Shown here piece by piece: positions 15,464-33,616 of a DNA stretch of 38,228 bases. Numbering within the stretch: position 1 is the first letter of the stretch; each line of letters begins with the position of its first letter. Source of the DNA: Xanthobacteraceae bacterium. GTDB lineage: Bacteria > Pseudomonadota > Alphaproteobacteria > Rhizobiales > Xanthobacteraceae. The translations under genes and the position numbers were made by a program. The notes under the pieces were generated by a model, which was not told the DNA's origin, did no database searches, and worked only from the letters and a program-made list of their open reading frames with translations. The stretch covers positions 1-38,228 of the forward strand of contig JAICQA010000001.1 of NCBI GenBank assembly GCA_025929595.1. The letters are read 5' to 3'.

Positions 15464-15670
15464 ATGATCCCCGAGAATACCCAACACATTTGTCGTTGCG
15501 GCCACGAGCGCGATCAGCACCAGTCTCGTACTGAGCAGCGGTGTGGGGAGAAGATCCAGGTTGAAAAGTGCGAAGACTGCCCGTGTGAGCACTACATCGA
15601 TCGTGCCGGGCCAATGTCTAGGCTTATCGACCAATTTCGCATGGTCGAGATGCGAAAAGGCACGCGATGA
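15464..15670 (+). CDS. Cys/His-rich small protein
   Basis: HICRCGHERDQH...CGEKIQVEKCEDCPCEHY. Confidence 0.5.
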   Translation: MIPENTQHICRCGHERDQHQSRTEQRCGEKIQVEKCEDCPCEHYIDRAGPMSRLIDQFRMVEMRKGTR

Positions 15671-17797: not shown

Positions 17798-19070
17798 GGT
17801 TCTCGGCCTGCACGATAACCAGTGGCCGGTGTTCGATGATCCGGCGCGGTTCCCGGTTGTAGCGGCGGGTCGTCGGTTCGGTAAGACGGAATTGTCGCTG
17901 GTGAAGTTGTTCACCGGTGGGAAGGATGGGCGCGGGTGCCTGACGAGGCCCGGCCTGTATCGCTACGTGGCCCCTACGCAGAAACTCGCGCGCAAGGTGT
18001 TGTGGCGCCGAAAGTTGAAGCGGGCGCTGCACCCCTCGTGGTTGTCGAAGCCGCCGAACGAAACGAACCTCGAGGTCACTTTCAAGAATGGCTCCATCCT
18101 GGAAGTCCTGGGCGCTGAGGAAGAAGGCGGACTGCGCGGCGAGGGCGTGACCGGTGTGGTGCTCGATGAGTATGCGCAGATGCGGCTGACGTCGTTCCCG
18201 GAAGAGGTGCGCCCGTCCTTGGCGGACGAGAAGGGCTGGGCCATGTTCATCGGCACGCCGCAGAGCTTCAATCACTTCTACGACATGTTCAACCGCGGGC
18301 AGGATGCCCGGCACCCGACGTGGAAGTCCTGGCAATTCAGGAGCATCGACAACCCGCTGATCGACCCGGAAGAAATCGAAGAGGCGCGGCGTACCACGGA
18401 TCCGCGGACCTTCCGGCAGGAATGGGAGGCGAGCTTCGAGGCCATCGCCGGCCGCATCTATTACGCGTTCACGCGCGCCGAACATGTGCGGAAAGTGGCG
18501 CTCGAGAAGGCGCTGCCGGTGTGCCTGACGTTCGACTTCAACTACAACCCCGCCACGGCGGTGATCGGACAGCGCCTGAAGGATGAATGCCGGATTGTGC
18601 ATGAAGTCTTCCTGCCCTTTCGTGGCGGCGAAGCGACGATCGCCAGCGCGAACGCCTGCAAGGACTGGTTGGCCGAGCAGGGGTTCAAGAGCCAGATCCG
18701 CATCTACGGCGACTCCACCGGCAAGTCGATGAAGACGACCGGGCCGAGCGACCATCAGGTCTTGCGCGACATGTTCCCGTATGCGTCCTGGTGCATTCCG
18801 AACGCGCAGCCGAACCCGCGCGATCGCCATGCCGCGGTGAACGGGCGCTGCCGGACGGCCGATGGACGATCGCACCTAACCATCGATCCTTCGTGCGAGA
18901 AGCTGATTGCCGACCTCGAGCGCGTCATCTACGCACCGAACGGCGAAGAAGACCAAAAGACCGATCCGAATCTGACGCACATCAGCGCCGCGTTCGGGTA
19001 TTGGGCTGTTCAGGATTGGCCGCCAGTCAAAAAGGGCGGCGCGGCAGAAGGGAGTGCCCATTGGCTGTAG
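17763..19070 (+). CDS. terL: Terminase large subunit (start may be 17784/17787)
   Basis: Walker A-like VVAAGRRFGKTE, Walker B VVLDEYAQ and a C-terminal nuclease-like half (LTFDFNYNP, IYGDSTGKS). Position before the portal gene. Confidence 0.85.
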   Translation: MTPTSTAMMTSKVLGLHDNQWPVFDDPARFPVVAAGRRFGKTELSLVKLFTGGKDGRGCLTRPGLYRYVAPTQKLARKVLWRRKLKRALHPSWLSKPPNETNLEVTFKNGSILEVLGAEEEGGLRGEGVTGVVLDEYAQMRLTSFPEEVRPSLADEKGWAMFIGTPQSFNHFYDMFNRGQDARHPTWKSWQFRSIDNPLIDPEEIEEARRTTDPRTFRQEWEASFEAIAGRIYYAFTRAEHVRKVALEKALPVCLTFDFNYNPATAVIGQRLKDECRIVHEVFLPFRGGEATIASANACKDWLAEQGFKSQIRIYGDSTGKSMKTTGPSDHQVLRDMFPYASWCIPNAQPNPRDRHAAVNGRCRTADGRSHLTIDPSCEKLIADLERVIYAPNGEEDQKTDPNLTHISAAFGYWAVQDWPPVKKGGAAEGSAHWL

Positions 19071-19792: not shown

Positions 19793-21349
19793 ATGCCTGC
19801 GGCTTCGGCTCCGCTCGGAACGACCGGGCCTGTGTTGGGTGTAGCGCATCCGCTTTACACCACATACCGGCCCGTGTGGCAGCAACTGCTCGACGTCTTC
19901 GAAGGCGCCGGCGGGTTTCTGTCGCCATCGAAGCCCTATCTCGTTGCGCACCCGCGCGAATACCTCGATCACTCGATCACGGAAACAGCTGAGGACGGCA
20001 CGACGCCTGTCAAGGTTGTGCCGAACCCGAGCCCCACTGCCCCGTCGCCGAAGTTACTCGAGCGTCGCAAGTTGGCCCGCTACGAGAACTATGCCGAGAC
20101 GCTGATCGAGCAGCTGGCGAACGCCCTTTTTCGTGTCGAACCCACGCGCACGTTCAACGAGAAGGCCGCGGCGCCGACGACCGGTAAGCGTCCGATCGAG
20201 GAGTTCTGGGACGACTGCGATGGGGTTGGCACGAAGTGGATCGACTTCCTGCGGCAAGCCTGGATCGTCGCTGGGGTTTTCGGCCACATGGTGATCTACT
20301 TCGATCACCCGCCCGATGACCGCCTGGTCCCGATAGCGCGCGCCTACACCCCGCTCGATGTGCCCGACTGGCTGGTGAACGAATACGGCCAGATGACGCA
20401 GATCAAACTGCTGGAGGCGGCGCCCCGGGAATCCTTCGGCACCCCTGCCGCGCAGACGGCTGCGCAAGTGCGGGTCCGGGTCGTGACCGAGGTTGGCTGG
20501 TCTGTGCAGTTGTCGAACGGCGCTGCCCTTGAGGCGGACAATCACGGCTTCGAACAGTTGCCGGTCGCGTTCCTCTACTCGAAACGCCGGGCGATCATCC
20601 CCTTTATCGGCAAGTCCTTGCTGGGCGACCCGATGAAGTTCATCGACCTCTACAACATGTCCTCGGAGGAGCGGGAATTGCTGCGCAAGCAGACGTTCTC
20701 GATCCTCAACGTGCCGGTCGGGGAAAACGGCAACATCGATCGCGAGCAGGCGTTGATCGGGCGCCAATCGGGCACCGGCAACATCCTATTTACGTCCGAA
20801 GCGGCCAACTACATCAGCGCCGATGGCGAGAACGTCATCGTCTACCACGCCGCCCAAGACCGGCTCATTCGTTCGATCTTCCGTTCGGCCTTGCTGCCCT
20901 GGGATACCGACTCGAAGGATGCCGAAGCCGAAGGATCCAGGCGAATCAAGCGCGAAGACCTGAATACGCAGCTGTCTAAGTTCGCGGACGAGTTGCAGAT
21001 GGTCGACAACCTCGCGGCCGATCTGGTCTATCAGGCGGCCTACGGCGCCGCGTGGCGGAAGTGGCGCGACTCGGACGGGCTCGGCCTGGGCTGGCCCGAG
21101 AGCTTCGACGTCACACCGCTCGAAGACCTCCTCAAGCAGTACACCGACGGCGTGTCCATGGAGCTCGGCGAGACGGCCACGAAGGAAACGAAGAAGCGCG
21201 CCGCGCGCGTGCTCCTGCCCGACATGCCGCAGGACAAGCAGCAGACCATCGACGACGAGATCGACGCGATGGAAGTCATCACCGAGGAAGACCGGCGCCA
21301 GGACGAGATGAAGGCGATGACCGGACGATTGGCGGCCCTCAATGGCTGA
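19793..21349 (+). CDS. Portal protein
   Basis: 518 aa, the first large gene after terL, followed by a Mu-F-like head protein. Acidic C-terminus. Confidence 0.7.
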   Translation: MPAASAPLGTTGPVLGVAHPLYTTYRPVWQQLLDVFEGAGGFLSPSKPYLVAHPREYLDHSITETAEDGTTPVKVVPNPSPTAPSPKLLERRKLARYENYAETLIEQLANALFRVEPTRTFNEKAAAPTTGKRPIEEFWDDCDGVGTKWIDFLRQAWIVAGVFGHMVIYFDHPPDDRLVPIARAYTPLDVPDWLVNEYGQMTQIKLLEAAPRESFGTPAAQTAAQVRVRVVTEVGWSVQLSNGAALEADNHGFEQLPVAFLYSKRRAIIPFIGKSLLGDPMKFIDLYNMSSEERELLRKQTFSILNVPVGENGNIDREQALIGRQSGTGNILFTSEAANYISADGENVIVYHAAQDRLIRSIFRSALLPWDTDSKDAEAEGSRRIKREDLNTQLSKFADELQMVDNLAADLVYQAAYGAAWRKWRDSDGLGLGWPESFDVTPLEDLLKQYTDGVSMELGETATKETKKRAARVLLPDMPQDKQQTIDDEIDAMEVITEEDRRQDEMKAMTGRLAALNG

Positions 21350-22160
21350 TCTCCTGGGTCGCGGCCGGCGCATCGCGGAGACAGCCGATCGGTTGTCGCA
21401 CGCCTTTCAGCGGGAACTCGCCCGCGTGCTGCAGGACACCGAGCGCGCGTTGCAGCCGATTCTGCGTCGCGCCCTGGATGGCGATCGCACCGAGCAGGTC
21501 CGCGGCGCGCGTGGGCTGGCGCTCCGTCGCGAGTTGCGCGACGCCCTCGCGCGTGCTGGCTATGACCGCTTGGCGGATACCGCGACGTCACAGGCCGTGG
21601 CGCAGATGGCCGAGACGGTCCTCGCCACGCGCATCGGGCAAGGTGCCGTGCGGTTGGTGCAGCCGGACGCGCGGAAGTTGTTCGCGCTCATCGAGATTGG
21701 CCGGACGAATCTGCTGCAGGTCGGGGACGACACCGCCGCGGCGATCTGGCGCTCGACAACTTCCTGGGTGTTCTCGGCACGGTCGACGAATGACATTTTG
21801 GACGATCTCTTCGAGGCGATCGATGAGGACGTGGGCGCGTTGCACACGCTCTTCGATACGCAAGTGTCGATGTTCGGGCGACAGGTGGAAGCCCTCGCGA
21901 CCGCAGACTTGCCAGCCGATCAGCCGTTCCTCTACGTCGGCCCGAACGACAAGCGCAACCGGCCCTTCTGCCGTGAGCACGTCGGCCAGGTCTTGACGCG
22001 CGACCGGATCGAGGCGCTGGACAACGGGCAGTTGCCGAATCCGTTCGTCACCGGCGGCGGGTACAACTGCCGGCATTCATGGTTGGCGGTCGAGTCGCAG
22101 GAGCTGCGCGACATCGTCAACACGGGCGCGCGTGCGCCGGAATTTGCGGGGGTTGCGTAA
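21342..22160 (+). CDS. Head morphogenesis protein (Mu F / SPP1 gp7 family)
   Basis: FLYVGPNDKRNRPFCREHVGQV...GGGYNCRHSW is the family C-terminal signature. Confidence 0.75.
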   Translation: MADLLGRGRRIAETADRLSHAFQRELARVLQDTERALQPILRRALDGDRTEQVRGARGLALRRELRDALARAGYDRLADTATSQAVAQMAETVLATRIGQGAVRLVQPDARKLFALIEIGRTNLLQVGDDTAAAIWRSTTSWVFSARSTNDILDDLFEAIDEDVGALHTLFDTQVSMFGRQVEALATADLPADQPFLYVGPNDKRNRPFCREHVGQVLTRDRIEALDNGQLPNPFVTGGGYNCRHSWLAVESQELRDIVNTGARAPEFAGVA

Positions 22161-22450
22161 TGGGCGTCACCGTCCGCAAGAACTTCTCGCTGAAGGCCGT
22201 GAAGCTCACCACACGCGCCGACATGGAAGCGATCGGTCGTCTCGCGCGCGAGCGGATCATCCGCCGCACGGTGATGGGCGTGGCTCCCGGTGGGGGTTCG
22301 TTCGCGCCGTACTCGGAGAGCTATCGAAAACAGAAGGCCGGCGAGTTGGGCTCGGCCTCCCCCGTGAACCTGCAGGTCAGTGGCGAAATGCTGCGCTCGA
22401 TCCAGGTGATCGCGGAAGACAAGAAGGTCACGTTGACCTTCAACGCCTAA
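22160..22450 (+). CDS. Virion morphogenesis-like protein, N-terminal-type half
   Basis: GGGSFAPYSESYRKQKAG...VNLQVSGEMLRSI resembles the front half of P2 gpS-type morphogenesis proteins. TAATG-coupled. Confidence 0.45.
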   Translation: MGVTVRKNFSLKAVKLTTRADMEAIGRLARERIIRRTVMGVAPGGGSFAPYSESYRKQKAGELGSASPVNLQVSGEMLRSIQVIAEDKKVTLTFNA

Positions 22451-22673: not shown

Positions 22674-23411
22674 ATGGATCCGATCACGGTAGAAGTCGAC
22701 GAGAAGGGCAACATCGGGAAACTGCCCGAGCCGCTGCAGAAGTTTTTCGACACGCGCATCAATGATGCCGTGCGTCGCAAGGCCGAACAGCTCGAAGCGG
22801 AATTCAAGGGCAAGACCGTCGACCCCTCCGAGCGCGAGCGCATCAAGGCCGTCGAGGACGAGAACAGCCGTCTGAAGGAAGCCGAAGCGCGCGCGCAGAA
22901 GAACTACGAAGAAGCCGATCGCCTGAAGGAAGAACGCCACAAGAAATCGCTCGAAGAGCGTGACGGCGTGGTGACGGCCAAGGATCAAGAAATTGCGCGC
23001 CGGGATACCCGGCTGCGTTCGATGCTCGGGTCCGAGATCAAAGCGTCTGCCGTCGCCGCCGGCGCGCGCGAAGAATCTCTACCCGAACTCGTGAAGCTCC
23101 TCGGAGCGGATTTGGACCTCGACGCTGCGACGCTTGAGCCTTTCGTGAAGGGGACGGACGGAAAGCCCCTCGTCGACAAGGACAACAAGCCCGTATCGGT
23201 TGAGGGGTTCGTGAAGCAATACCTCGCTGATCACCCGCACCACATCGCCAAGCCGGGCGGACGCTCGGGCCGCGCGACAGGTGGGGCGACGATGCGAGGG
23301 GCATCCGCGGTGCCAGGCTCGAAAGAGGAAGCCTTGGCCGCGGCGGCAGACAACCCCAACGCGAGGAACGTCACGACCGCGATCGGTGCGATCCGGAAGA
23401 AGGCGTCCTAA
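22674..23411 (+). CDS. Scaffolding protein
   Basis: Highly charged coiled-coil sequence (ERERIKAVEDENSRLKEAEARAQKNYEEADRLKEERHKK) directly upstream of the capsid gene. Confidence 0.7.
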   Translation: MDPITVEVDEKGNIGKLPEPLQKFFDTRINDAVRRKAEQLEAEFKGKTVDPSERERIKAVEDENSRLKEAEARAQKNYEEADRLKEERHKKSLEERDGVVTAKDQEIARRDTRLRSMLGSEIKASAVAAGAREESLPELVKLLGADLDLDAATLEPFVKGTDGKPLVDKDNKPVSVEGFVKQYLADHPHHIAKPGGRSGRATGGATMRGASAVPGSKEEALAAAADNPNARNVTTAIGAIRKKAS

Positions 23412-23437: not shown

Positions 23438-24580
23438 ATGGCCTTTACCGGGCTGGCATCGAACGAACGATTTACCGCGAATCAGGTCCGCGAGGACATT
23501 TCGCGCATCATGGCGACCCTCTCGCCGAAAGAGGCGCCGATCCTGGACTGGCTGGGTGATGCCGACGTCTTCGCGACGTCCACCAAGCACGAGTTCATGG
23601 AAGACCACATGTTGCCCAACTACATCGTGGCGTCGACCGCGATCAATTCGGCGACGGCGGCCACGGGCATCCAGGTCAACGGCCTCGGCTTGGCCCTGAC
23701 GGAAGGCACGATCCTCGAGAACGAAACCTCCGCGGAGTTGATGCAGGTCAGTTCCGTCGTGGGTGCCAACTCCGTGCTGGTCAACCGCAACTACGGCGGC
23801 GGCGGCATCGGCTCGCTCGTGGCGGGCGGGCAGCTCTACGTCCGGGCGATGGCCGGCGTCGAAGGCCAGGATCACAACGGTTCCTCGGTGCGCCGGCTCG
23901 GCGTGCGTCGATCGAACACCGTGGGGATGTTCTACATCCCGGTCGCGGCCTCTGGCACCGATCTGGCGATCAACCTCGCGGGCGGCGATTCGTACGACAA
24001 CGTCATCCGCAAGGGCCTGATCGACGCGCTGCATCAGTTGGAAAAGGAAGCCGTCCGCGGCGTCCTCAACAGCTCGAACTCGCTCGGCACCACGTCGGCG
24101 ACGCGCACGATGCAGGGCATTCGGACGCAGCTCACCACGATCAACTCGACAATCACCGCGAGCTCGTTCGCGACGTCGCCGCACACCTACATCGGCAACC
24201 TCTGGGAGCAGATTTACATGAACGGCGGCTCCCCGAACACCGAGACGTGGGCGATCATCGCCGGCTCGACGTGGTACCGCGACATTTCGAACCTGAACGA
24301 CACCAAGGTCCAGGACTCGAACGACAAAGAAGAGTTCAAGCGCGTGATTCGTCGCTACGTCGGCCCGCTGGGCTCGGCGGAAGTGCTGCTCTCGCGCGTG
24401 CTGCCGGCGACGGAACTGCTGCTCGTGCCGCGTGAGCGGCTGAAGGTGGTCCCGCTGCAGGGGCGCTCGTTCGTCTACGAAGACCTCGGCAAGACGGGCG
24501 ACAACGAGAAGGGCCAGATCGTCGGCGAATACAGCCTCGAGCTGTTCCATCAGAACGCGATGGCGCGGGCGCACACCTAG
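23438..24580 (+). CDS. Major capsid protein (HK97-fold, DUF5309/SU10-like impression)
   Basis: 380 aa with a strong GAGGAG ribosome site, positioned after the scaffold gene and followed by a hairpin. Confidence 0.8.
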   Translation: MAFTGLASNERFTANQVREDISRIMATLSPKEAPILDWLGDADVFATSTKHEFMEDHMLPNYIVASTAINSATAATGIQVNGLGLALTEGTILENETSAELMQVSSVVGANSVLVNRNYGGGGIGSLVAGGQLYVRAMAGVEGQDHNGSSVRRLGVRRSNTVGMFYIPVAASGTDLAINLAGGDSYDNVIRKGLIDALHQLEKEAVRGVLNSSNSLGTTSATRTMQGIRTQLTTINSTITASSFATSPHTYIGNLWEQIYMNGGSPNTETWAIIAGSTWYRDISNLNDTKVQDSNDKEEFKRVIRRYVGPLGSAEVLLSRVLPATELLLVPRERLKVVPLQGRSFVYEDLGKTGDNEKGQIVGEYSLELFHQNAMARAHT

Positions 24581-24593
24581 ACCGCATGACGGC

Positions 24594-24621
24594 GGGGCCT
24601 GGGCGATGGCTCAGGCTCCCC
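24594..24621 (+). terminator. Imperfect GC-rich hairpin after the capsid gene (attenuator-like)
   Basis: GGGGCCTGGGC-gatg-GCTCAGGCTCCCC with one 2-nt bulge, followed by CGTTCGTTTGG. Confidence 0.4.
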
Positions 24622-24645
24622 CGTTCGTTTGGCTGAAAGGCACCG

Positions 24646-24810
24646 ATGAACGAGACGCTGCAGGACATTGCGAACTATCTCCGTGGGCACAAGATCGCCG
24701 CGCGATCCGATGATCCGCGCCAGTGGGCAACCTTTCTTGATCAGGTGATTCAGCCGCAACTCGAGGAACTCGCCAAGCTCAAAGGCGAGGGGAAGAAAGG
24801 CAAAGCGTGA
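24646..24810 (+). CDS. Small protein (54 aa) coupled to the GT fusion gene
   Basis: AAAGG-n6-ATG. Its stop overlaps the GTG start of the next gene (GTGA). Confidence 0.45.
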   Translation: MNETLQDIANYLRGHKIAARSDDPRQWATFLDQVIQPQLEELAKLKGEGKKGKA

Positions 24811-27800
24811 CGCTGACGTTCGGGTTCTACATCGATTCGGTGGCGTTTACGCCAGAAGTCATCGCGGGGACCGCGTCCCTGGGGGGCTCGGAGTCGGCCT
24901 GTCTCGGCTTGGCTCGGGCGCTCAAGGCACGCGGTCACACGGTGGTGATCTTCGCGACGCAGTTGCACGACGAAGCCCCGGCGATCGATCACGCCGGTGT
25001 GCAGTGGGCGCACGCCAATGAGATCGACGGCATGTCCCGCGTCGTGGATTGGGATGTGTTCGTGGCCTTGCGGATGCCGCACTGCTTCACACTGCCCATC
25101 CGCGCGAAATACCGGATCTTGTGGAATCAGGATCTGATGACCGGCGACGACGCCAAGAACATCACGATGGCGCTGTCCTGGGCCTACGACGCGGTCGCGT
25201 ACGTCTCGGCGTACCACCGAAAGCAATGGGAAGGCCAGATCCCGGAACTCGCGCCGATCGGCTGGGTGACGAAGAACGGCTTCGACCCGCAGCACGTCCC
25301 GAAGGATGCCGTCAAGGATCCGAACCGGATCATTCACATCACGCGGCCCGAGCGCGGCTTGCGGCCGATCTTGGCGATGTGGCCCGAACTCAAGCGCCGC
25401 TATCCGCAGGCGACGCTCTCGCTCTGCCGCTACAACTCGATGTATGACGCCCAAGGTTGGGCGAAGGTGTGCGCGTCCTACGACGACGCGGTCAAGGCCG
25501 TCAACGAGCAGGTCGGCGGTATCACCTATCTCGGCGAACTCGGCAAGGCCGATCTCTACCAGGCGATCGCGGAATCGGCGGTCATGTGGTACCCGGGCGT
25601 CGTGGACTTCGCGGAAACCTCCTGCATCGCGGCCATCGAGGCGCAAGCCTGTGGCACCCCGTTTGTCGGCTCATGGAAGGGCGCGCTGCCGGAAACCGTG
25701 CCGAGCGGACTCCTGATCGAAGGCGACGCCGATCGCGATCCGGAGTATGCCGAGGCCAGCATCTCAGCCGTCATCGAGCAACTCCAGGGCTGCGCAACAC
25801 AGTCATTTGCCTACCGATCGCGCGTGAAGCAGGGCCTCGCACACGTCAGCCCCGGCTACAGTTACGACACGATCGCTCAGGAGTGGGAAGCGCACCTCTT
25901 CGCGGAGTTCGATCGCCGCGTGGCCACGAAGGGCCGGCAGGTGCTCGAGCGGTTGCTGCACGAAGATGACCATGTCGCCGCTCAGGCAATGGCGCGACAG
26001 TTGATGGATCGCGAGATTCTGGCCGGCCGCTGGCCTGAAGGCGCGGACGTCGACCAGATGTCTCCGGAACATCGCGCGCTGTTCGAGACGTGGAATTTCT
26101 GCCAGCACGTCATCGACGGCAAGGAACACACCGCCGCCGACTACGCGGAATACGCGCTGGACCCGCTCGAAGAGATCAAGGTCAACGGCCGGATTCCTCA
26201 GGTGTCCGAACAGTTGCGCGGCGCGACCCACATCTTGGATCTCGCCTGCGGCAATGGCTCGATGGCGATCTCCATCGTCCAGGCCAACCCCGGCGCGCGG
26301 GTCCTCGGCATCGACTACGCCCAGCGGAACATCGACGCGGCTACGGAAGCGGCGCGCATCCTCGGCGTGTCCGACCGCTGCACCTTTGTCTGCGCGCCGG
26401 TCTATGACTTTGCGACGCACCAGATCGACCCGGGACTGGCTGCCATCGTGGCCGGCTTCCCCGCCTTCGATGGTGTGTTCATTGGGGAGTTTCTCGAGCA
26501 CATCGCGAATGTCGATGGCTTCCTGAACGCGCTACACCCCCTGGTCGCGCCCGGCGCCCGCGTCGTCTGCACGATGCCGTCGGGGCCCTACTGCGAACTG
26601 AACGCGCGGGATGTGCCCTACAAGCGGGGCCACGTGCACCACTTCCGGCCGCGCGACCTGCAGGCGCTGTTCGGCCAGCAAGCGAACGTCAGCACGTCGT
26701 ATCTCGAAGCCGGCCTCTCGATGCGCTGGAGCGTGCTGGGAACGTGGATTGTCGCCTACAACACGTCAGCGCAACCGATTGGTGCTCGACCCCTCACCGA
26801 GACGATCCGCACGGCTCGGCCGTTCTCGAAGCTGTCGGTCGGGATCATCGCCGGCGAAGCGACGGACCTGCGGCGCTGCCTGCAGTCCGTCTGGGGCATT
26901 ACCGACGAAATCGTGATCGGGGATACCGGCTGTAAACCAGCGGAATTGGCGCAGGTGCTCGCCGAGTTCCCGAAGACGCGCGCGATCCCGATCGGCCCGG
27001 TCGATCACCTCCGTGGCGGGTTCTCCGAGGCGCGCAACATGGTGCTCTCGGCCTGCACCGGGGAGTGGTTCTTCTGGATCGACACCGACGAGGTGCTGGT
27101 CCGGCCCGAGGCCCTGCACCGCTATCTCGAAGCGACGACGTTCCACGGCTACGCGGTCAAGCAGAACCATCTGATGCTCGACATGCCGAAGTCGTTCGAC
27201 ACGCCGGTCCGCATCTTCCGCCGCTCGGCGGCGATTCGCTTCTACGGGTGCATCCACGAACAGCCGCAGATGGGCGACTGCAATGGCGACATCGTGCCGT
27301 CGTTGCAGCTCGCGGACGCGGAAATTGCCCATGTGCTGGGCTATCTCACCGAGGACATCCGGCGCCGGAAGTGCCTGCAGCGGAACCTGCCACTGCTGGC
27401 GCGCGATCAGGACATCTTCCCCGATCGGCGACTCGGCAAGGTGCTGGTCATCCGCGACATGCTGAACCTCGCGCAGTGGGAAACCGAGGAAGCAGGCGGC
27501 CGGCTGACCGCGCGCGCGAAGGAGCGTCTCGGGACGGCCATTGCGCTGTTCGAAAAGCACTTCAGCGACCCGGCCGACAAGTACCACACGCTCGCCCGAC
27601 CGTTCTACGAGGCGGCGCTGAAGCACGTCGCGGGCTCGCTGGAGTGTGAGTTCTCCTTCGTCGCCCAGGTCAACGGCTTGAAGGGCCGGCCGAAGCCTGA
27701 GCGCGTCTGGGTCCGCACACAGGCCCAACTCGACGCCTTGCTGAAGCTCCGCGTCGAACAGTGGACCAAGCCGATGCAGCCGGCCGTGATCGACGTCGAG

Positions 27801-27848
27801 CCGATGGTCGCGCGCGTCGTTGACATGCCGGAAGGAGCGCCGGTCTAG
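24807..27848 (+). CDS. Tri-domain enzyme: GT4 (GT-B) glycosyltransferase + class I SAM methyltransferase + GT2 (GT-A) glycosyltransferase with helical C-terminus
   Basis: aa 1-365: GGSESACLGLARALKARGHTVVIFA and E-x7-E (FAETSCIAAIEAQACGTPFV). aa ~455-600: ILDLACGNGSMA, VLGIDY, FDGVFIGEFLEHI and PGARVV. aa ~675-830: LSVGIIAGEATDLRRCLQSV, DEIVIGDTGC, GGFSEARN and WFFWIDTDEVL (DxD). Confidence 0.85.
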   Translation: MTLTFGFYIDSVAFTPEVIAGTASLGGSESACLGLARALKARGHTVVIFATQLHDEAPAIDHAGVQWAHANEIDGMSRVVDWDVFVALRMPHCFTLPIRAKYRILWNQDLMTGDDAKNITMALSWAYDAVAYVSAYHRKQWEGQIPELAPIGWVTKNGFDPQHVPKDAVKDPNRIIHITRPERGLRPILAMWPELKRRYPQATLSLCRYNSMYDAQGWAKVCASYDDAVKAVNEQVGGITYLGELGKADLYQAIAESAVMWYPGVVDFAETSCIAAIEAQACGTPFVGSWKGALPETVPSGLLIEGDADRDPEYAEASISAVIEQLQGCATQSFAYRSRVKQGLAHVSPGYSYDTIAQEWEAHLFAEFDRRVATKGRQVLERLLHEDDHVAAQAMARQLMDREILAGRWPEGADVDQMSPEHRALFETWNFCQHVIDGKEHTAADYAEYALDPLEEIKVNGRIPQVSEQLRGATHILDLACGNGSMAISIVQANPGARVLGIDYAQRNIDAATEAARILGVSDRCTFVCAPVYDFATHQIDPGLAAIVAGFPAFDGVFIGEFLEHIANVDGFLNALHPLVAPGARVVCTMPSGPYCELNARDVPYKRGHVHHFRPRDLQALFGQQANVSTSYLEAGLSMRWSVLGTWIVAYNTSAQPIGARPLTETIRTARPFSKLSVGIIAGEATDLRRCLQSVWGITDEIVIGDTGCKPAELAQVLAEFPKTRAIPIGPVDHLRGGFSEARNMVLSACTGEWFFWIDTDEVLVRPEALHRYLEATTFHGYAVKQNHLMLDMPKSFDTPVRIFRRSAAIRFYGCIHEQPQMGDCNGDIVPSLQLADAEIAHVLGYLTEDIRRRKCLQRNLPLLARDQDIFPDRRLGKVLVIRDMLNLAQWETEEAGGRLTARAKERLGTAIALFEKHFSDPADKYHTLARPFYEAALKHVAGSLECEFSFVAQVNGLKGRPKPERVWVRTQAQLDALLKLRVEQWTKPMQPAVIDVEPMVARVVDMPEGAPV

Positions 27849-27850
27849 CC

Positions 27851-28708
27851 ATGTCCTGGCACCCCAACGACCTCGTCACCGACGCGGATCTCGTCGCCTA
27901 CGAGCGGACGGTCCTGACGCAGTTCGGCGCCATCGACTGGCAGGCCAAGCGGCAAAAGGCGCTCGAAGACTGGATCTTCCCGCTCTTGGCGTCGAGCGGC
28001 CTGGACCCGCAACGTTTGCGGACCCGCGCACAGCCGCAGGCGGCCTTCGGCTTCACGTCGACCTTCACCGATTACACCGACAAGGCGAAGACGACCACCG
28101 CCGATGACATTCCGCTCGCGTCGATCCTGACCGGCTCGTCGGATGCGTTCTATCTCGGCTCGACGGCACCGTTTCGCGGCGTGTCGATCCGGATGCTCGA
28201 CGCGGTGTCGACGGCGGCGCGCGTGTTGACGGTGGAGATTTGGCGCGATCGCTGGATGGGCGTCGCCGTCACCGATGGCACCGTCGCCACATCCGGGAAG
28301 CCGTTCAGTAAGGGCGGCGCGATCACCTGGTCGGTCCCGGAGGATTGGGTTGTGCGGCCGGTCAACAGTTCAGCCGCGCTCTACTTTGCCCGGCTACAGC
28401 TGGACGGCGCCCCGACCGGTGCCGCGATCGGGCAGGTCAGCGTGATTCGCCGATCGTGCCTGTGCGCCGCGGCGGCCATGCGGACGCTGGCCTACATCTT
28501 CCACGAAGCCCCGACGCAACAAGAGGGGCCCTGGGACAAGAAGGCGGAATGGTACGAGACAGAAGCGCAGCACGCCTGGGAACGCGTGCAGCCGCTGCTC
28601 GGCCGCGAATTTGATACCGAGACGGTCGACGACGTGATCGACGCGGAAGAAGCTGCACAAACCACCGAATCAGCCAACGGCGGCGGCTGGTCGATCGAAC
28701 GGTATTGA
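27851..28708 (+). CDS. Virion structural protein (putative head-tail connector/adaptor)
   Basis: Position between the head genes and tail tube. ATG lies 2 nt after the preceding stop. No motif recognised. Confidence 0.4.
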   Translation: MSWHPNDLVTDADLVAYERTVLTQFGAIDWQAKRQKALEDWIFPLLASSGLDPQRLRTRAQPQAAFGFTSTFTDYTDKAKTTTADDIPLASILTGSSDAFYLGSTAPFRGVSIRMLDAVSTAARVLTVEIWRDRWMGVAVTDGTVATSGKPFSKGGAITWSVPEDWVVRPVNSSAALYFARLQLDGAPTGAAIGQVSVIRRSCLCAAAAMRTLAYIFHEAPTQQEGPWDKKAEWYETEAQHAWERVQPLLGREFDTETVDDVIDAEEAAQTTESANGGGWSIERY

Positions 28709-28709
28709 T

Positions 28710-29141
28710 GTGGCGACGACGCTCGATGCCATCGTCGATCGTGTGCGAAGCCTCTGCTGTAGCAGTCCGTTTGTCTTCAGCGAGGCGGTCAGTACCGAAG
28801 GCTTCACCTTGCAACCCACGGGTCGCGGCGACCAGGTGTTTCGAGTGAAGACACGGGGAGGGCCGGCGCGAGGCCAGATGGCCTACGTCGAAGAGCGCAC
28901 CGACACCGTGGAGATTGAAGTGCTCCGCGCGGTCAATGCGGACTACGACGGCGCGCGGCGGCGGTTACTGAAGGATGTCACCAGTTTGACAGCGGCCATC
29001 ATCCGCGACGGGCACGTGACGAGCGGCGGCGAGTACACGGTCCCGGATGGCGGGCGATCGCACGACGTGATCGGGCAGACAGGCGCGTCATTTCTGACGC
29101 TGCGGATGACGCTGCCGGTCAACTACGAACTGTCGGTTTAG
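28710..29141 (+). CDS. Virion structural protein (putative neck/tail-completion)
   Basis: GTG start 1 nt after the preceding stop. 143 aa, directly upstream of the tail tube gene. Confidence 0.4.
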   Translation: MATTLDAIVDRVRSLCCSSPFVFSEAVSTEGFTLQPTGRGDQVFRVKTRGGPARGQMAYVEERTDTVEIEVLRAVNADYDGARRRLLKDVTSLTAAIIRDGHVTSGGEYTVPDGGRSHDVIGQTGASFLTLRMTLPVNYELSV

Positions 29142-29150
29142 GAGACGCAC

Positions 29151-30215
29151 ATGAGCGGGATTACGGGTCGCGAAACGCGGATCGGCTTCGCGAAGTTCGC
29201 CGCCAACAGCTGGGGGGTCGCCGCGTCCGTCACCAAGGGCGCGTACTTCCAGTCGGACGGCGGCCTGACCTATCAGCCGAACCGGGTCAACGATGAAGCC
29301 TTCGGGCAGTCGTTTCTCGGCGATGGCGACTTGGGGGATGTGAACGCCCCCGACATCACGTGGACCGGGCGCGATCGCTACGGCGATTACGGCTATGTCC
29401 TCGAAGGGCTGGCGATGGGTTCGCCCGCGGCGCCCACGATCTCCACGTCGGCGGCGGGTCAGACGACCAGCTGGCTGCACGTGATCGATCTCGCGCCGTC
29501 GATCGATGGCCTCGGTCTGACCGCGGCGATCGATAAGGTGCTGTTCGTCGACGAGCTGACCTCGGCCAAGGTCTACGGGTTCCAGTTGCAGCCCGGCGAC
29601 GGCGGCGTGATGGACAAGAGCTTCAAGATCATGGGCAGCAAGACGACCCCGATCTCGAGCATCAACACGCGCTCGACGGTGAACGGCGCCACGTTCCCGG
29701 CGCTGTCGGATCGTGTGTTCCGCAAGCACGGCATCTTTCGCATGAACCGCCAGAGCGCCGGCGGGCTCGGTGCCAGCGATGCCGTCGCGATCGAGTCGTT
29801 CTCGCACGCATTCGATCGGCCGCAGGATGCCCCGCACGTCTTTGGGCAGGACTTCGTCTATGAGCCGGCGGACAACGGCTTCCCCACCGTCAAGGTGATG
29901 GTGAGCTATCCGCGCATGAACAGCGTGTCAGCGAATTCGCTGTATCGGGCGCTGCTTGATGATCCGCAGTGGAAGGCGGACATCATCTTCAGCGGTTCCT
30001 ACATCAACTCAACGGACCAGCTCACGGAGAAATACGAGTATCCGGCTCTGGAGCTCGACGAGTGGAGCGCCCCGCTGACGGGCGCCAACCAGGTCAAACC
30101 GACGGCGACGTTTTCCGCGAAGCTCGCGGCGACCTCCCCGACCGGGATGGCCTTCGTGAACCCGTTCCGCCTCACGCGCATCATGGTCAATTCCTTGAGC
30201 GCGTTTGCGGTCTAG
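29151..30215 (+). CDS. Major tail (tube) protein
   Basis: GGAGAC ribosome site. Precedes the chaperone pair and tape measure, and is followed by a clean terminator hairpin. Confidence 0.55.
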   Translation: MSGITGRETRIGFAKFAANSWGVAASVTKGAYFQSDGGLTYQPNRVNDEAFGQSFLGDGDLGDVNAPDITWTGRDRYGDYGYVLEGLAMGSPAAPTISTSAAGQTTSWLHVIDLAPSIDGLGLTAAIDKVLFVDELTSAKVYGFQLQPGDGGVMDKSFKIMGSKTTPISSINTRSTVNGATFPALSDRVFRKHGIFRMNRQSAGGLGASDAVAIESFSHAFDRPQDAPHVFGQDFVYEPADNGFPTVKVMVSYPRMNSVSANSLYRALLDDPQWKADIIFSGSYINSTDQLTEKYEYPALELDEWSAPLTGANQVKPTATFSAKLAATSPTGMAFVNPFRLTRIMVNSLSAFAV

Positions 30216-30271: not shown

Positions 30272-30673
30272 ATGTCGCGCAGTTTGCACGATGAGTCTCA
30301 GACGTTCGAGGTGAAGGAATCGGACATTCCCGAAGTGGTGAATGCCGATCCGGATGTGGCCTACACGGTGCGCCCGCTCACGACGGCCAAGTTTCGCGAG
30401 TTGCAGAAGAGAAACACGCAACAGGTCGTCAACAAGGCATCGCGCAGCATGGAGGCCGAGGTCAACGGCGAGAAGTTGGCCGACGACTTGATCGACTGGG
30501 TCATTGCGGACTGGTCCGGCATCGTCGACAAGGGGCAACCCGCGGAGTGCTCGCGCGCGAACAAGCTACGCCTCGATGGCCAGGTGAAAGCGGGATTGAT
30601 CGGCGTGGCGGGCCTGAACCGAATCGAAGCGGCCCCGGAGGTCCGCACAGACTCGTTTCGTACAACTCCGTAG
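30272..30673 (+). CDS. Tail assembly chaperone (gpG-like)
   Basis: 133 aa, acidic, in the canonical position between tail tube and tape measure. Confidence 0.6.
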   Translation: MSRSLHDESQTFEVKESDIPEVVNADPDVAYTVRPLTTAKFRELQKRNTQQVVNKASRSMEAEVNGEKLADDLIDWVIADWSGIVDKGQPAECSRANKLRLDGQVKAGLIGVAGLNRIEAAPEVRTDSFRTTP

Positions 30674-30992
30674 TTTTTGCGAATTCTGGGACGACAAAGA
30701 CCAGCACACGACGTGCTGTCAGTTCGCGGATGACGAAACGGTCAGGACCGACCCGCAGGAGTTCGATTGTCGCGCCTGCGTCGTGATGGAGCGGTTGACC
30801 GACCTGGACGACGACAACCGGGCCAGTTGGCTGCTCTACCGACAGTTGTGCAATCGGTTCGTGAATGACCTGCAAGCCGGCAGCGTGTTGCTGGACCGGC
30901 TGACTGAAGACGATGACGCCGAGGTGTTCGCCGAGAAGTGCGACCGCCTGCAAGTGATCTACGACGTATTGCAACCACCGAAGACGACCTGA
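30618..30992 (+). CDS. Tail assembly chaperone extension frame (gpT-like); no in-frame ATG/GTG before GTG 30783, probably expressed by frameshift from 30272-30673
   Basis: The frame is open from 30618 and shows coding-type GC3 bias across 30675-30782 (FCEFWDDKDQHTTCCQFADDETVRTDPQEFDCRAC) although no in-frame start precedes 30783. It ends 5 nt before the tape measure ATG. Confidence 0.45.
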   Translation, partial: TESKRPRRSAQTRFVQLRSFCEFWDDKDQHTTCCQFADDETVRTDPQEFDCRACVVMERLTDLDDDNRASWLLYRQLCNRFVNDLQAGSVLLDRLTEDDDAEVFAEKCDRLQVIYDVLQPPKTT

Positions 30993-30997
30993 TTCCT

Positions 30998-33616
30998 ATG
31001 GCCCGAGAACTCGACATCGTTGTCACGATGCAGACCGCCGAGGCGGAACGCGCGGCTGAACGTGTCGACGAAAAGATCGCGAAGATCGGATCGACATCAG
31101 ATCAGACGTCGCAGGCGATCGACGACGCCGCGAAACGGGCCGACGCCAGCATCGCGCGGATCGAGAAGAAGTACGCGGACCAGGAAAAGGCATCAGAGAA
31201 AGCTGCGGCCAGCACCCAGAAGCACGCCGACAAGATGGGTGTCTTGGAATCGGCGGTCTTGCGCTACGCCGGGCCGGCCGTCATCGGTGTCGCGCTCAAG
31301 CAGACCCTCGCCTGGGCGGACTCCATCGAAGACCTCTCGAAGAAGACCGGCGTCGCACCTGGGAAGCTCCAGGCGCTGGAGTTCTCCGCGAAACAAGTCG
31401 GGTTGGCGATCGACCCAGTCGCGCGCGCCATCGGCATGATGGGCGATCGGCTGGCCTCGGGGGATAAGTCGGCCCTCGCGGGCCTCGAACGTCTCGGCCT
31501 CTCCTTCAAGACCATTCGCAGCATGTCGCCGGACGCGGCCTTCTTGGAAATCGCGAAAGCGATCGCGGAAGTCGAAGACCCCATGCAGCGCGCGGCGGAT
31601 GCGACCGATCTCTTTGGCCGCACCGGCATCGAGTTGCTACCGCTGCTCACGTCCGACATCGACGAGTTGATGAAGAAGGCGAAGCAGTTGGGCCTCGTCA
31701 TGGACGACGAGACAACCAAGGCCGCCGCCGATCTCAACGATCAGCTCGAGAACATGGTCGCCATCGGCAAGCGGCTGTTGGTGTCGGTGTTCCTGCCCTT
31801 GATCCCGATCCTGAATCCGATTGCGAACGCCTTCGGATTTCTCGCCGGCGAACTCAACAAGATGATCGTGGCGATTACGTCTCCCCTCGCCCAGATGCGC
31901 GAGTTCGCCGAACTGCTCGGCGTCATCCAATCGCGGTTGCCGAACATGCCCAAGGGGCCCGGGATGACGTTCGATCCGGGCATGTTGGGTACGCCTGGCG
32001 ATCCGATGACATCTGGCGTGTTCGGGCAAACCTACGACTTCGTCAACGACCAGCTCAATACGCGACTCGGGGCGCAAACCCGGAAGCCGCGAGTGCTGCC
32101 GTTTGTGCGGCCCGACCTCATGGGCGAATCCGCCTGGAATAACAGCGCGATCTTCCAGGCGCAGCAGTACGGCCTCTCGCCCGCGTTGTCGTTCCCCGGC
32201 TGGCAGAACGAGATGATGTACGGCCCCTTCGGGCCGATGGCGCCCTTCGCTGGCGCGGGTTCGCGCGCCGAGAATGACGCGATCTATCAGAACAGGCCGA
32301 ACGCCGGATCGGGCTTCTTGCGTGGCAGCGGCGGGCGCTTCCTCAGCGCGGGACTCGGTTCGATGGCCTCCTTCATCCCTGGCATGAATCATCAGGGCTC
32401 GGCGATCGGCTCCTCCTTCGGCTCGGCCCTGGGCGGCCTACAGGGCGTCATGGGCGCGCTCGGTTCGTTCGCGCCGTTCCTGGGCCCGATTGCGGGGATC
32501 GCGGGCGGCCTGCTCGGGAAGCTCTTCGGCCCGTCGGAAGCATCGAAGACCCGCAAGGAGCGATCGAGCTTTATCGATGACTTCGGCGGGATGGAGTCCC
32601 TGCAACTGGCGGCGGATCGCGCGGGGTTCAATCTCGACAAGTTGCTGTCGACGAAGAAGACCGACGTCCTCGCCGGCGAGATCAAGAAGCTCGAAGAGGC
32701 GATGGCGGCGTTCGATCAACAGGTGGCGGACGCGAATACCGAACTCGACACGATGTATTCCACGCTCGATGCCACGGTCGCGAAGGGCAAGGAACTCGGC
32801 TACGAGTTCGACCAGTCCGGCAACCTCGTCTCCGTGAACTTCCAGAAGATGCAGGAGACGGCGCAGAAATACAAGATCGACCTCGAAGCCCTCGGCCCGG
32901 CCTTCCAGCAGCAACGCCTGCACGCGATGGCCGAGGAGATCATCAACGACTTCACGCTCTTGAACATGGGCGGCACCGAGACGGGCACGATCCTGCTCGG
33001 CATGAGCGAGAAGATCAACGAGCTGGTCAACCAGTCGATCAAGTACGGCACGGAAATTCCCGCGAACATGAAGCCGTGGATCGAGAACCTGATCGAAGCC
33101 AATCAGTTGACCGACGAGAACGGCGTCGCGATCACCGACCTGTCACAAATGAAGTTTGGCGAGACGGTCGCGTCCGAGTTCTCGAAGATTCAGGCATCTC
33201 TCGTTGAACTCGTCGACAAGATCGGTGTCCTCGTCGACAAGATCACGGAAATGACGGCGCCGAAGACAATCCATATCGGCTGGCAGGTCGACCCGCCGCC
33301 CGACATCCAGACGCCCGATTACAACAGCATGGGTGGCTTCGTTGGTCAGCCGCGCTATCTCGCCGGCGGCGGCATGATCCCGCGTGGTACCGACACCGTC
33401 CCGGCGATGTTGACGCCCGGCGAAGGCGTCATGCGGCGCGATGCCGTGGCGCGCTTGATGCGCGGCGATTGGCCGCAAGGCGGCGGCACCACGACGATCG
33501 TCATCGACAACATGCAGGTCGACACGTTCTCGAGCGAGATGGAAGCGGAAACGCAGATCGGCCGGGCGCTGGTGCGCGGCCTGAAGCGGCGGGGGGTGCG
33601 GCTCAACGCCGCCTGA
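30998..33616 (+). CDS. Tail tape measure protein
   Basis: 872 aa. Core AIGMMGDRLASGDKSALAGLERLGLSF...ATDLFGRTGIELLPLL, Gly/Ser-rich hydrophobic middle and coiled coils. Confidence 0.85.
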   Translation: MARELDIVVTMQTAEAERAAERVDEKIAKIGSTSDQTSQAIDDAAKRADASIARIEKKYADQEKASEKAAASTQKHADKMGVLESAVLRYAGPAVIGVALKQTLAWADSIEDLSKKTGVAPGKLQALEFSAKQVGLAIDPVARAIGMMGDRLASGDKSALAGLERLGLSFKTIRSMSPDAAFLEIAKAIAEVEDPMQRAADATDLFGRTGIELLPLLTSDIDELMKKAKQLGLVMDDETTKAAADLNDQLENMVAIGKRLLVSVFLPLIPILNPIANAFGFLAGELNKMIVAITSPLAQMREFAELLGVIQSRLPNMPKGPGMTFDPGMLGTPGDPMTSGVFGQTYDFVNDQLNTRLGAQTRKPRVLPFVRPDLMGESAWNNSAIFQAQQYGLSPALSFPGWQNEMMYGPFGPMAPFAGAGSRAENDAIYQNRPNAGSGFLRGSGGRFLSAGLGSMASFIPGMNHQGSAIGSSFGSALGGLQGVMGALGSFAPFLGPIAGIAGGLLGKLFGPSEASKTRKERSSFIDDFGGMESLQLAADRAGFNLDKLLSTKKTDVLAGEIKKLEEAMAAFDQQVADANTELDTMYSTLDATVAKGKELGYEFDQSGNLVSVNFQKMQETAQKYKIDLEALGPAFQQQRLHAMAEEIINDFTLLNMGGTETGTILLGMSEKINELVNQSIKYGTEIPANMKPWIENLIEANQLTDENGVAITDLSQMKFGETVASEFSKIQASLVELVDKIGVLVDKITEMTAPKTIHIGWQVDPPPDIQTPDYNSMGGFVGQPRYLAGGGMIPRGTDTVPAMLTPGEGVMRRDAVARLMRGDWPQGGGTTTIVIDNMQVDTFSSEMEAETQIGRALVRGLKRRGVRLNAA

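Follow-up and report, generated by a model that had tools for sequence, protein, structure and literature searches.

We analyzed a 38,228-nucleotide stretch of contig JAICQA010000001.1, deposited under a Xanthobacteraceae bacterium (the whole stretch is referred to as the window), whose predicted genes mark it as the genome of a temperate phage. Within its structural genes, a single open reading frame (ORF; 24807-27848, + strand) encodes a fusion of a GT4-type glycosyltransferase (GT), a class I S-adenosylmethionine (SAM)-dependent methyltransferase (MT), and a GT2-type GT. The best-supported explanation, which we hold with moderate confidence, is that this enzyme would be a late-made cytoplasmic assembly line that O-glycosylates virion proteins of the phage and caps the resulting glycan with a methyl group. 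The proposal builds on the identities and folds of the three domains, their invariant catalytic residues, the clade to which the GT2 domain belongs, and the position and conservation of the gene.

Architecture of the fusion enzyme

In the ORF list, the enzyme gene runs over 1013 codons (1013 aa) from a GTG start to a TAG stop, and its junctions are as a first-pass annotation of the window had described them: the start shares the tetranucleotide GTGA with the TGA stop of a 54-aa ORF (24646-24810), and a 2-nt spacer separates the stop from the ATG of the next ORF (27851-28708). Since alignments with homologs begin at about residue 3 of the protein, the GTG start is supported. The same annotation had read three enzyme signatures in this one ORF, and Pfam placed all three at the claimed sites, the GT4, methyltransferase, and GT2 models each scoring above cut-off in their own segments. 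The domain order is GT-B/GT4, helical linker, class I SAM methyltransferase, GT-A/GT2, and helical tail.

An AlphaFold2 model built with 24 homologs (predicted local distance difference test (pLDDT) 89.4, predicted template modeling score (pTM) 0.87) displayed a GT-B fold (aa 1-310), an all-helical linker (aa 311-470), a Rossmann MT (aa 471-655), a GT-A fold (aa 670-848), and a helical tail (aa 849-990). Foldseek confirmed the GT-B, Rossmann-MT, and GT-A folds, each separately. The catalytic signature residues, including all the motifs quoted in the first-pass annotation, were invariant or nearly so in 67 distinct homologs, down to ~37% identity. No membrane-spanning segment was found in the enzyme (maximum 19-residue hydropathy of 1.57), so it would act in the cytoplasm, the site where virion proteins fold and assemble. 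Judged from these features, the protein is predicted to be a soluble enzyme of three domains, each of which looks catalytically competent.

The third domain (aa 670-848; 26814..27350, + strand) is a GT-A fold GT2 that was assigned to the GmaR/SunS/ThuS clade by PDB profile, phmmer, Foldseek, and NCBIfam searches. Glycos_transf_2 (PF00535) matched aa 684-782 with 31.7 bits against a cut-off of 23.3. In the profile search against PDB, the GT domain of GmaR was matched at E 1.6e-32, ThuS at 1.2e-20, and SunS at 2.4e-20, compared with 2.3e-8 for the best generic GT2; these alignments covered profile positions 10-209, that is, the whole domain, including the HE(Q/E)P and GY...RRN motifs. A phmmer search of PDB with the GT2 domain plus the tail matched GmaR and SunS/ThuS and nothing else, and the top five Foldseek matches of the domain were ThuS/SunS. 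D759-x-D761-E762, H817-E-Q-P820, and R859/N860 all belong to the invariant or nearly invariant set. The sole NCBIfam match of the enzyme was the SunS family (TIGR04195), at 31.8 bits against an equivalog cut-off of 350. These matches describe the domain as a relative of the GmaR/SunS/ThuS clade and not as a SunS ortholog or equivalog.

This clade can be regarded as polypeptide-directed because all its solved members (GmaR, SunS, and ThuS) act directly on polypeptides; no other solved GT2 enzyme is known to do so. GmaR is the flagellin O-linked N-acetylglucosamine transferase of Listeria, in which the N-terminal GT domain precedes a TPR domain with a proposed role in substrate recognition (PMC9638930), and enzymes of the SunS/ThuS type carry out the S- or O-glycosylation of glycocin peptides (PMC12457901). 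The helical C-terminal tail of the window enzyme (aa 849-1000; 27351..27806, + strand), delimited from the model and Foldseek, has four to five helices and a small beta element. The ThuS/SunS Foldseek alignments extend over 272-299 columns, past the ~200-residue GT-A core, and partly cover this tail; no TPR match was found in the enzyme with Pfam. By analogy with the helical or TPR domains that follow the GT in GmaR and SunS, we propose that the tail may serve as an acceptor-recognition or scaffold domain.

The first domain (aa 1-310; 24807..25736, + strand) has a GT-B fold and was identified as a GT4-type (retaining-type) glycosyltransferase with a GGSES nucleotide-sugar loop by Pfam (PF13692/PF13579/PF00534), phrog_2170, Foldseek, and motif invariance. 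Glyco_trans_1_4 (PF13692) matched aa 183-308 with 33.5 bits against a cut-off of 27, and the N-terminal half of the GT4 domain was matched at aa 26-68. Its motifs G26-G-S-E-S30 and E270-x7-E278 were again invariant or nearly so. Foldseek placed the domain next to MshA, PimA, ManT, and AviGT4 (E ~1e-12, TMt 0.66-0.74), and glycogen synthase and the ManT of methylmannose polysaccharide also appeared among its relatives, all of them generic retaining-type GT-B enzymes. In PHROGs, the enzyme matched two glycosyltransferase families.

An all-helical linker domain (aa 311-470; 25737..26216, + strand), recognized from the secondary structure of the model and from identity per region, leads to the second catalytic domain (aa 471-655; 26217..26771, + strand). 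Pfam, PDB matches, and Foldseek identified the latter as a class I SAM-dependent methyltransferase with motif I DLACGNG, D503, and EFLEH. PF08242, PF13847, PF13489, PF13649, and PF08241 all matched above cut-off at aa 468-624, and D478xACGxG484, D503, and E561/E564/H565 were conserved in the same way as the motifs of the other domains. Its best profile matches in PDB were 6uv6, a 'D-glucose O-methyltransferase' (5.3e-9), and 3bus (5.6e-9), which we take to be RebM, followed by other MTs at 2e-8 to 1e-7; with Foldseek, 6uvq AtmM was matched at E 6.5e-9. The domain thus appears closest to sugar O-methyltransferases, with weak separation from other MTs.

Mean identity to the window protein was highest in the GT4 domain (64%), followed by the GT2 domain (55%), the tail (48%), the MT domain (45%), and the linker, which is the least conserved region (36%). 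The three-domain layout was kept in 24-26 of 28 divergent representatives, down to ~26% identity.

Position and inheritance of the gene

The gene upstream of the enzyme had been called the major capsid gene, and this was borne out: the ORF at 23438..24580 (+ strand) encodes a major capsid protein (MCP) of the SU10 type with an HK97 fold (PF17236 SU10_MCP, E 5e-44; phrog_1328), which is the invariant upstream neighbor across 104 loci. The enzyme gene follows it inside a string of structural genes, as the first-pass annotation had stated. We compared 72 loci, comprising 67 IMG/VR contigs, three contigs of metagenome-assembled genomes (MAGs; Vicinamibacterales, Nitrospira, and a 225-kb Acidobacteriota contig), and two assembly contigs, and the order was always MCP, a short gap, the enzyme, three ORFs that we name g285, g143, and g354 after their lengths in the window, the tail assembly chaperone, and the tape measure. 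Across these loci, the identity of the enzyme (37-70%) tracks that of MCP (35-79%) and portal (30-68%), which argues for a vertically inherited core gene and not an inserted moron.

A search based on MCP gave the same picture. None of the 104 loci with enough flanking sequence lacked the enzyme, and g285 was next downstream; the two apparent exceptions represent a distant variant in which 9.7 kb of structural genes separate MCP from the enzyme, and there the adjacency of enzyme and g285 is intact. In one such locus (L056:398-9511, + strand), the 9.7 kb of structural-looking genes include a fiber-tail adaptor of the podophage GP4 gp77 type (PF23148). In another locus (L071:14056-21508), ~7 kb lie between g285 and the tube-like g354, again with enzyme and g285 adjacent.

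A divergent clade of the enzyme lies among different structural genes. Hidden Markov models (HMMs) of the MCP, g285, and g354 of the window lineage did not match the neighbors in this clade, which were clustered and annotated with PHROG separately. Upstream of the enzyme we found a portal, a head maturation protease, a small scaffold-like protein, and a major head protein of phrog_1005 (40 loci, positions -1 to -4), and downstream an adaptor-like protein (+1), a Neck1 protein (+2), and a tail protein (+4). Because the divergent clade repeats the order with the phrog_1005 head protein, the head/neck position of the enzyme is conserved across two capsid families.

Additional putative tailoring genes occupy the same spot in some relatives. 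An O-MT-like ORF of the Methyltransf_24 family, the Pfam family of Corndog gp35, lies between MCP and the enzyme in one locus (L031:1098-1700, + strand), and a radical-SAM-like ORF is found at position -1 or -2 to the enzyme in 12 divergent loci (e.g., L147:7418-8143, + strand).

Other genes were observed at this site as well. HNH ORFs stand directly upstream of the enzyme in eight divergent loci. A 176-177-aa ORF (…ITVTLGTDGAG..D..KNT.TL.AAA.DAL…) with no Pfam match lies between MCP and the enzyme in three loci (L001:7468-8001, L098:9460-9990, and L100:9381-9911, + strand) and could encode a decoration protein. Three tandem paralogous ORFs between MCP and the small ORF of another locus (L058:6655-8168, + strand) encode very basic proteins (GYGGRGGKGGA...KKRGGKGSVKASGRVGTG) that may be internal or DNA-binding proteins.

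Size and novelty of the family

The fusion proved to be widespread in uncultured phages, where it lies between head and neck genes. In a collection of 5.8 billion proteins, more than 120 full-length homologs (49-73% identity) were found among 630 matches, many of them on contigs of 40-66 kb. An exhaustive search with aa 662-1013 gave 367 clusters (50% identity) at E <=1e-30, most of which contain proteins of 950-1050 aa that match at ~620-990. An alignment of divergent members (A9) retrieved at least 575 IMG/VR stretches, where a single divergent protein (P0387) used as the scan query had given only a spurious match. Among genome contigs, a single-protein scan had no match and the alignment-based scan found only the three MAG contigs and no cultured host. 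The hosts of the family are probably of the Acidobacteriota or Nitrospirota type.

The first-pass annotation had known of no description of this three-domain architecture in a phage head operon. No record with the GT4-MT-GT2 fusion was found among the phage genomes deposited in GenBank, in which MCP itself has only two distant relatives, and we found no description of the family in the searchable literature; the JGI annotations of the homologs are generic. Its absence is limited to deposited, annotated phages and the searchable literature, and the architecture is not rare, given the IMG/VR contigs and the hundreds of protein clusters. In BFVD, two proteins of uncultured Caudovirales (A0A6J5M7M7 and A0A6J5T3W3; 787 and 1119 aa) aligned across more than 900 columns, with an identity of 13-14%; both are multidomain GT/MT proteins, so fused glycan-tailoring enzymes may be more common in phages than annotation indicates.

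Some members of the family carry inteins. In P0052 (1264 aa), a mini-intein bearing an HNH homing endonuclease interrupts the protein exactly between S272 and C273 (window nt ~25620-25625), inside the E-x7-E motif of the GT4 domain, with the boundaries ...FAETS | C...HN | CIAAIE.... Inteins were present in five of the unusually long representatives, and LAGLIDADG domains occurred in two of these. Inteins in the active site of a glycosyltransferase are unusual and suggest a strong constraint on this site, and repeated invasion of this kind is typical of indispensable, conserved active sites.

A conserved hairpin between the capsid and enzyme genes

The 65-nt spacer between MCP and the 54-aa ORF (g54) folds into a G+C-rich hairpin after the MCP stop (24586..24628, + strand), with an inner 11-bp stem at 24594-24619 and a weak U-tract (minimum free energy (MFE) of -36.5 kcal/mol, z of -2.74). 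Hairpins recur at this site across the family, with a median MFE of -35.7 kcal/mol compared with -22.7 kcal/mol inside the MCP gene, and z was below -2 in 58% of 53 loci. Their position is conserved and their stem sequences differ, and a T-rich run often comes next. In several relatives, another small conserved hairpin (GGCGTCTGAGCAACGCC) lies just 3′ of the first.

The hairpin is probably a leaky terminator or attenuator, or an mRNA-stabilizing element, that lowers the expression of the enzyme relative to MCP. Because it is conserved after the MCP gene, equal co-expression of the two proteins is unlikely, and reduced read-through expression of the enzyme is more plausible. The first-pass annotation had seen no promoter-like or terminator-like gap on either side of the gene and had expected the enzyme to be made with the virion proteins. 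The own junctions of the gene are indeed gapless, it overlaps or abuts its neighbors in the structural string, and a promoter scan with the sigma-70 consensus, which may not be that of the host, gave 0 sites; however, the spacer upstream of g54 holds the conserved hairpin. A consensus terminator scan near the enzyme gene yielded nothing convincing and did not flag the hairpin.

A proposed role in virion glycosylation

We infer the acceptor, the donor sugars, the order of the steps, the timing of expression, and the benefit to the phage as follows. Transcription of the gene would accompany that of the late head/neck genes, with hairpin read-through probably keeping it at a reduced level. The C-terminal GmaR/SunS-type GT2 domain, together with the helical tail, would put a first sugar on a serine or threonine (S/T) of the acceptor; the N-terminal GT4-type GT-B domain would extend it by a further sugar; and the central SAM methyltransferase would O-methylate the glycan and thereby cap it. 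Candidate acceptors are MCP, g285, and/or the tail-tube-like g354. A small methylated glycan would change the virion surface and, through it, particle stability, shielding from binding proteins or enzymes, or adsorption behavior. The first-pass annotation had suggested a self-contained module that builds a short, possibly methylated glycan on virion proteins; our results retain this as the favored explanation, with the acceptor, the donors, and the order of the steps staying at the level of prediction.

The placement of the GT2 domain in a clade of polypeptide glycosyltransferases strengthens this interpretation. The tailoring genes found at the same spot in relatives, namely the O-MT-like ORF and the radical-SAM-like ORFs of the 12 loci, also speak for it, as do precedents in other viruses. 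Several reports (PMC4351075, PMC11600133, PMC12363180, PMC12619734, the last three citing Freeman et al. 2023 for the glycosylation) describe mycobacteriophages whose structural operon includes GT and O-MT genes and which glycosylate capsid and tail-tube proteins; the glycosylation enzymes themselves are reported not to be found in virions. Likewise, a report on chlorovirus PBCV-1 (PMC7826918, citing Speciale et al. 2020) describes A064R, a protein that combines a pair of GT domains with an MT domain, as extending the glycan of the major capsid protein and methylating its terminal sugar.

Several observations weigh against virion glycosylation. Glycosylation by members of the family is a prediction from sequence and models, and each acceptor is a candidate. 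The structural neighbors of the GT4 domain act on lipids, small molecules, and polysaccharides, and none acts on proteins; the sugar specificity of the MT domain is weakly separated (5e-9 against 2e-8 for other MTs); and the score of the GT2 domain lies so far under the SunS equivalog cut-off that the specificity cannot be transferred. The raised S/T content of the virion proteins is generic for beta-rich structural proteins and does not discriminate. MCP has no S/T-rich C-terminal extension in its alignment (A2) and so offers no parallel to the C-terminal sites of mycobacteriophages. Late expression is deduced from gene arrangement alone, and the conserved hairpin separates the enzyme from the MCP gene. 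Finally, homology of Corndog gp35-38 to the fusion was considered and rejected, since BLASTP gave E >=0.17 for all pairs and the proteins belong to different Pfam families.

Alternative explanations

The enzyme might instead glycosylate a host protein or an envelope glycoconjugate (flagellin, pilin, S-layer, or a lipopolysaccharide or exopolysaccharide precursor), either in the lysogen or at a late stage of infection, and so mask a receptor, which would lead to superinfection exclusion or to less loss of progeny on debris. Temperate phages often carry surface-modifying glycosyltransferases, and this phage has an integrase (657-1760). The solved enzyme closest to the GT2 domain, GmaR, modifies a filament protein on the host surface (PMC9638930), and PimA and ManT, neighbors of the GT4 domain, act on envelope lipids and polysaccharides. 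We nevertheless consider this scenario unlikely. The gene sits in the head/neck string, among ORFs that overlap or abut and ~23 kb from the integrase, and lacks membrane segments, which sets it apart from seroconversion-type glycosyltransferases, as the first-pass annotation had proposed; no Gtr- or Wzx-type partner was found in the window. It is, moreover, a core gene that co-diverges with structural proteins in hundreds of phages and two capsid families, while conversion genes are typically patchy morons, and a late cytoplasmic modification would leave little time to reach the surface.

A second alternative dispenses with a protein acceptor. The product might be a free or lipid-linked methylated oligo- or polysaccharide, comparable to the methylmannose polysaccharide of mycobacteria, or a small molecule that is glycosylated; such a product would help with assembly, the timing of lysis, or takeover of the host. 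The likeness of the GT4 domain to ManT, MshA, AviGT4, and glycogen synthase would fit such a product, as would the likeness of the MT domain to natural-product sugar O-methyltransferases. Set against this are the polypeptide-directed clade of the GT2 domain and the window itself, in which no accompanying sugar-nucleotide or carrier-lipid genes were found, and the conserved position in the head module would be left unexplained. We give this possibility little credence.

It is less probable still that the substrate is a phage polypeptide other than a virion protein, for instance, g54 acting as a glycocin-like or regulatory peptide, in the manner of SunS and sublancin in prophage SPbeta. The GT2 domain is homologous to the SunS/ThuS clade, this small conserved ORF is always directly upstream with its stop overlapping the enzyme start, and radical-SAM proteins, of which genes adjoin the enzyme in the 12 divergent loci, are common maturases of peptides (RiPPs) that are made by the ribosome and modified after translation. 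However, Cys pairs and a leader-like region are missing from the g54 family, as are transporter and immunity genes; the protein is S/T-poor (5.6% in the window), and its basic AT-hook-like tail suggests nucleic-acid binding. The divergent clade has no detectable g54 homolog, and two GTs and an MT would be excessive for known single-sugar glycocins (PMC12457901).

Hypermodification of the phage DNA by glycosylation, with or without sugar methylation, as a means of restriction evasion is highly improbable: phage GT-A and GT-B enzymes do glycosylate 5-hydroxymethylcytosine or 5-hydroxymethyluracil DNA, and two DNA methyltransferases are present in the window (14029-15084 and 15667-16296), but DNA-modifying GTs cluster with C5-methyltransferase (C5-MT)/5mYOX or thymidylate-synthase (ThyS) homologs (bioRxiv 10.1101/2023.12.21.572611, also for the DNA glycosylation), none of ThyS, 5mYOX, and C5-MT was detected among the window ORFs, where the DNA methyltransferases are of the N6/N4 and MT-A70 types, structures like T4 beta-GT were absent from the top Foldseek matches, and the gene sits in the head module and outside the replication module.

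Comparison with known systems

With virion glycosylation as the preferred interpretation, the fusion can be regarded as functionally analogous to the mycobacteriophage gene sets and to A064R and homologous to neither. Like the O-MT gp35 and the GTs gp36-38 of Corndog (and gp110 of Che8), it places GT and MT functions inside the structural genes, with an inventory of at least two GTs and one MT. The differences are that the hosts of those phages are Actinobacteria and those of the fusion probably of the Acidobacteriota or Nitrospirota type, that acceptor sites in mycobacteriophages are reported at C-termini and the window MCP has no comparable extension, and that, unlike the mycobacteriophage sets, the window enzyme is fused and is a universally conserved core gene.

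A064R, like A111/114R, resembles the window enzyme in that a virus encodes two GT domains and an MT domain on one polypeptide. It belongs, however, to a giant virus of eukaryotes, has 638 aa in the order GT-GT-MT instead of GT4-MT-GT2, and extends an N-linked glycan without initiating on the protein. Homology between the two is without support, because no A064R structure was among the top 50 Foldseek PDB matches of the enzyme.

GmaR and SunS/ThuS, the closest relatives of the window GT2 by profile and by fold, share with it the DxD, HE(Q/E)P, and GY...RRN motifs. In each of them, a helical domain, to which the tail of the window enzyme may correspond, comes after the GT-A domain; they are cytoplasmic and act directly on polypeptides, and SunS, being prophage-encoded, is also phage-borne. 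They are nevertheless single GTs that add one sugar to host or bacteriocin substrates, and GmaR carries TPR and antirepressor domains, whereas the window enzyme has two additional catalytic domains.

WbdD/WbdA of E. coli and WsaE of Geobacillus likewise have GT domains fused to or coupled with a methyltransferase, which caps the glycan at its non-reducing end. These act on membrane lipid-linked polysaccharides within large polysaccharide loci; the window enzyme, in contrast, has neither a polysaccharide locus nor a membrane association. The seroconversion GTs of the GtrABC type are membrane proteins that are encoded near int/att and expressed in the lysogen. Both these and the window enzyme are GTs of temperate phages, but the latter is soluble and encoded in the head module, ~23 kb from int.

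Implications

To our knowledge, glycosylation of phage particles has been demonstrated so far only for a few mycobacteriophages. What is new here is the GT4-MT-GT2 fusion, its status as a co-diverging core gene, its recurrence at the head/neck position in two capsid families, the hosts outside Actinobacteria, and the polypeptide-GT clade of the domain that would initiate the glycan. A bolder generalization, which we regard as possible though on balance doubtful, is that O-glycosylation of virions extends beyond actinobacteriophages as a hard-wired, vertically inherited step of head/neck morphogenesis. It would then be present in a globally distributed and very large group of uncultured tailed phages, represented by at least 575 IMG/VR contigs, with two unrelated capsid families and hosts including Acidobacteriota and Nitrospirota; the fused enzyme would initiate, extend, and methyl-cap a glycan on capsid or neck proteins; and, as the linkage to g285 and the intein load would suggest, this would be nearly indispensable for infectious particles.

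If the proposed function is correct, virion glycosylation would be widespread in environmental phages of poorly studied phyla, as a core and not an accessory trait, and would bear on the phage surface, stability, host recognition, and the evasion of immunity or defense. The enzyme would also amount to a compact and soluble machine, encoded by a single gene, that starts a protein-linked glycan, extends it, and methylates it, with possible use in protein or phage glyco-engineering. Because the acceptor candidates are encoded next to the enzyme, the proposal lends itself to testing through heterologous co-expression, with no need for a cultured host. The active-site inteins and the conserved small upstream protein might serve as useful markers for this group of phages.

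Neighboring genes

Among the candidate acceptors, MCP has conserved S/T-dense stretches at aa 64-78, 211-225, and 233-247. The small ORF g54 (24646..24810, + strand) encodes a conserved helical protein of 54 aa, for which ORF extraction in 51 loci and an alignment (A6) defined a family of 52-104 aa with the motif RRWQxYLRxEIQPxLDEL, a coiled-coil, a K/R-rich tail, and, in some members, an AT-hook-like GRPRK. The window g54, which has no Pfam or PHROG match, is a divergent member of this family, and g54 is always directly upstream of the enzyme in the window lineage.

The product of g285 (27851..28708, + strand) was recognized from synteny, a model, and Foldseek as a virion structural protein, and it is the invariant downstream neighbor of the enzyme even where synteny breaks. 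In its model (pLDDT 81), both ends are helical and flank a jelly-roll beta-sandwich at the center; an S/T-rich loop occupies aa 69-83. Foldseek matched chain 9efk_M of LME-1's portal-tail complex (E 5e-7), baseplate proteins of contractile injection systems (CIS), and, weakly, carbohydrate-binding module and discoidin proteins, and the profile search against PDB gave one partial match, to orf18 of 9efk (E 6.8e-6). The latter is the hexameric tail (nozzle) protein in the portal-tail complex of podophage LME-1 (PMC12407071). The first-pass annotation had labeled this gene a connector, which was not confirmed: g285 has no match in Pfam, PHROG, or NCBIfam and shares only the beta-sandwich with nozzle and CIS baseplate proteins. 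We regard it as a candidate neck or tail protein of the virion that is not recognizable as a connector and might be an acceptor or a partner of the enzyme. The downstream genes of the divergent clade are adaptor- or Neck1-like and differ in this from the window g285.

The next gene, g143 (28710..29141, + strand), encodes a small, conserved protein at the position of neck or tail-completion proteins, a call made from synteny alone as it has no family match in Pfam, PHROG, or NCBIfam. It is followed by g354 (29151..30215, + strand), the probable major tail (tube) protein according to synteny and its position before the chaperone, with an S/T-dense stretch at aa 163-177 that makes it a candidate acceptor. 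No direct family match was found for g354 in Pfam, PHROG, or NCBIfam, nor any by profile search against PDB. With one partial match and none in the PDB profile searches, respectively, 'connector' for g285 and 'tube' for g354 remain positional calls.

Remainder of the window

The left half of the window contains the integrase (657-1760, - strand), ERF and YqaJ recombination genes, a replication initiator, RusA, and the two DNA methyltransferases, N6_N4_Mtase (14029-15084, + strand) and MT-A70 (15667-16296, + strand), which lie shortly upstream of the terminase and presumably serve anti-restriction. HNH endonuclease ORFs were observed at 161-646 (- strand), adjoining the integrase, and at 8068-8478 (+ strand). 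No terminal repeat and no tRNAs were found in the window. The packaging and head genes comprise TerL (17763-19070), portal (19793-21349), and scaffold (22674-23411). A 123-aa ORF at 22079-22450 (+ strand), between a portal-associated gene and the scaffold, weakly matches Neck1/tail-completion proteins (phrog_26); this is an odd place for a neck protein, and the ORF is conserved in the family and overlaps the end of the ORF at 21342-22160.

The tail module contains the tail assembly chaperone (30272-30673; phrog_313/389), the tape measure (30938-33616), and a gpD-like hub. An ORF of 286 aa in the distal tail region (35939-36799, + strand; phrog_2295, function unassigned) is very glycine-rich (G/A/S/T) and contains no tandem DNA repeats. 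It accounts for a local G+C peak (0.73) and probably encodes a glycine-rich tail fiber.

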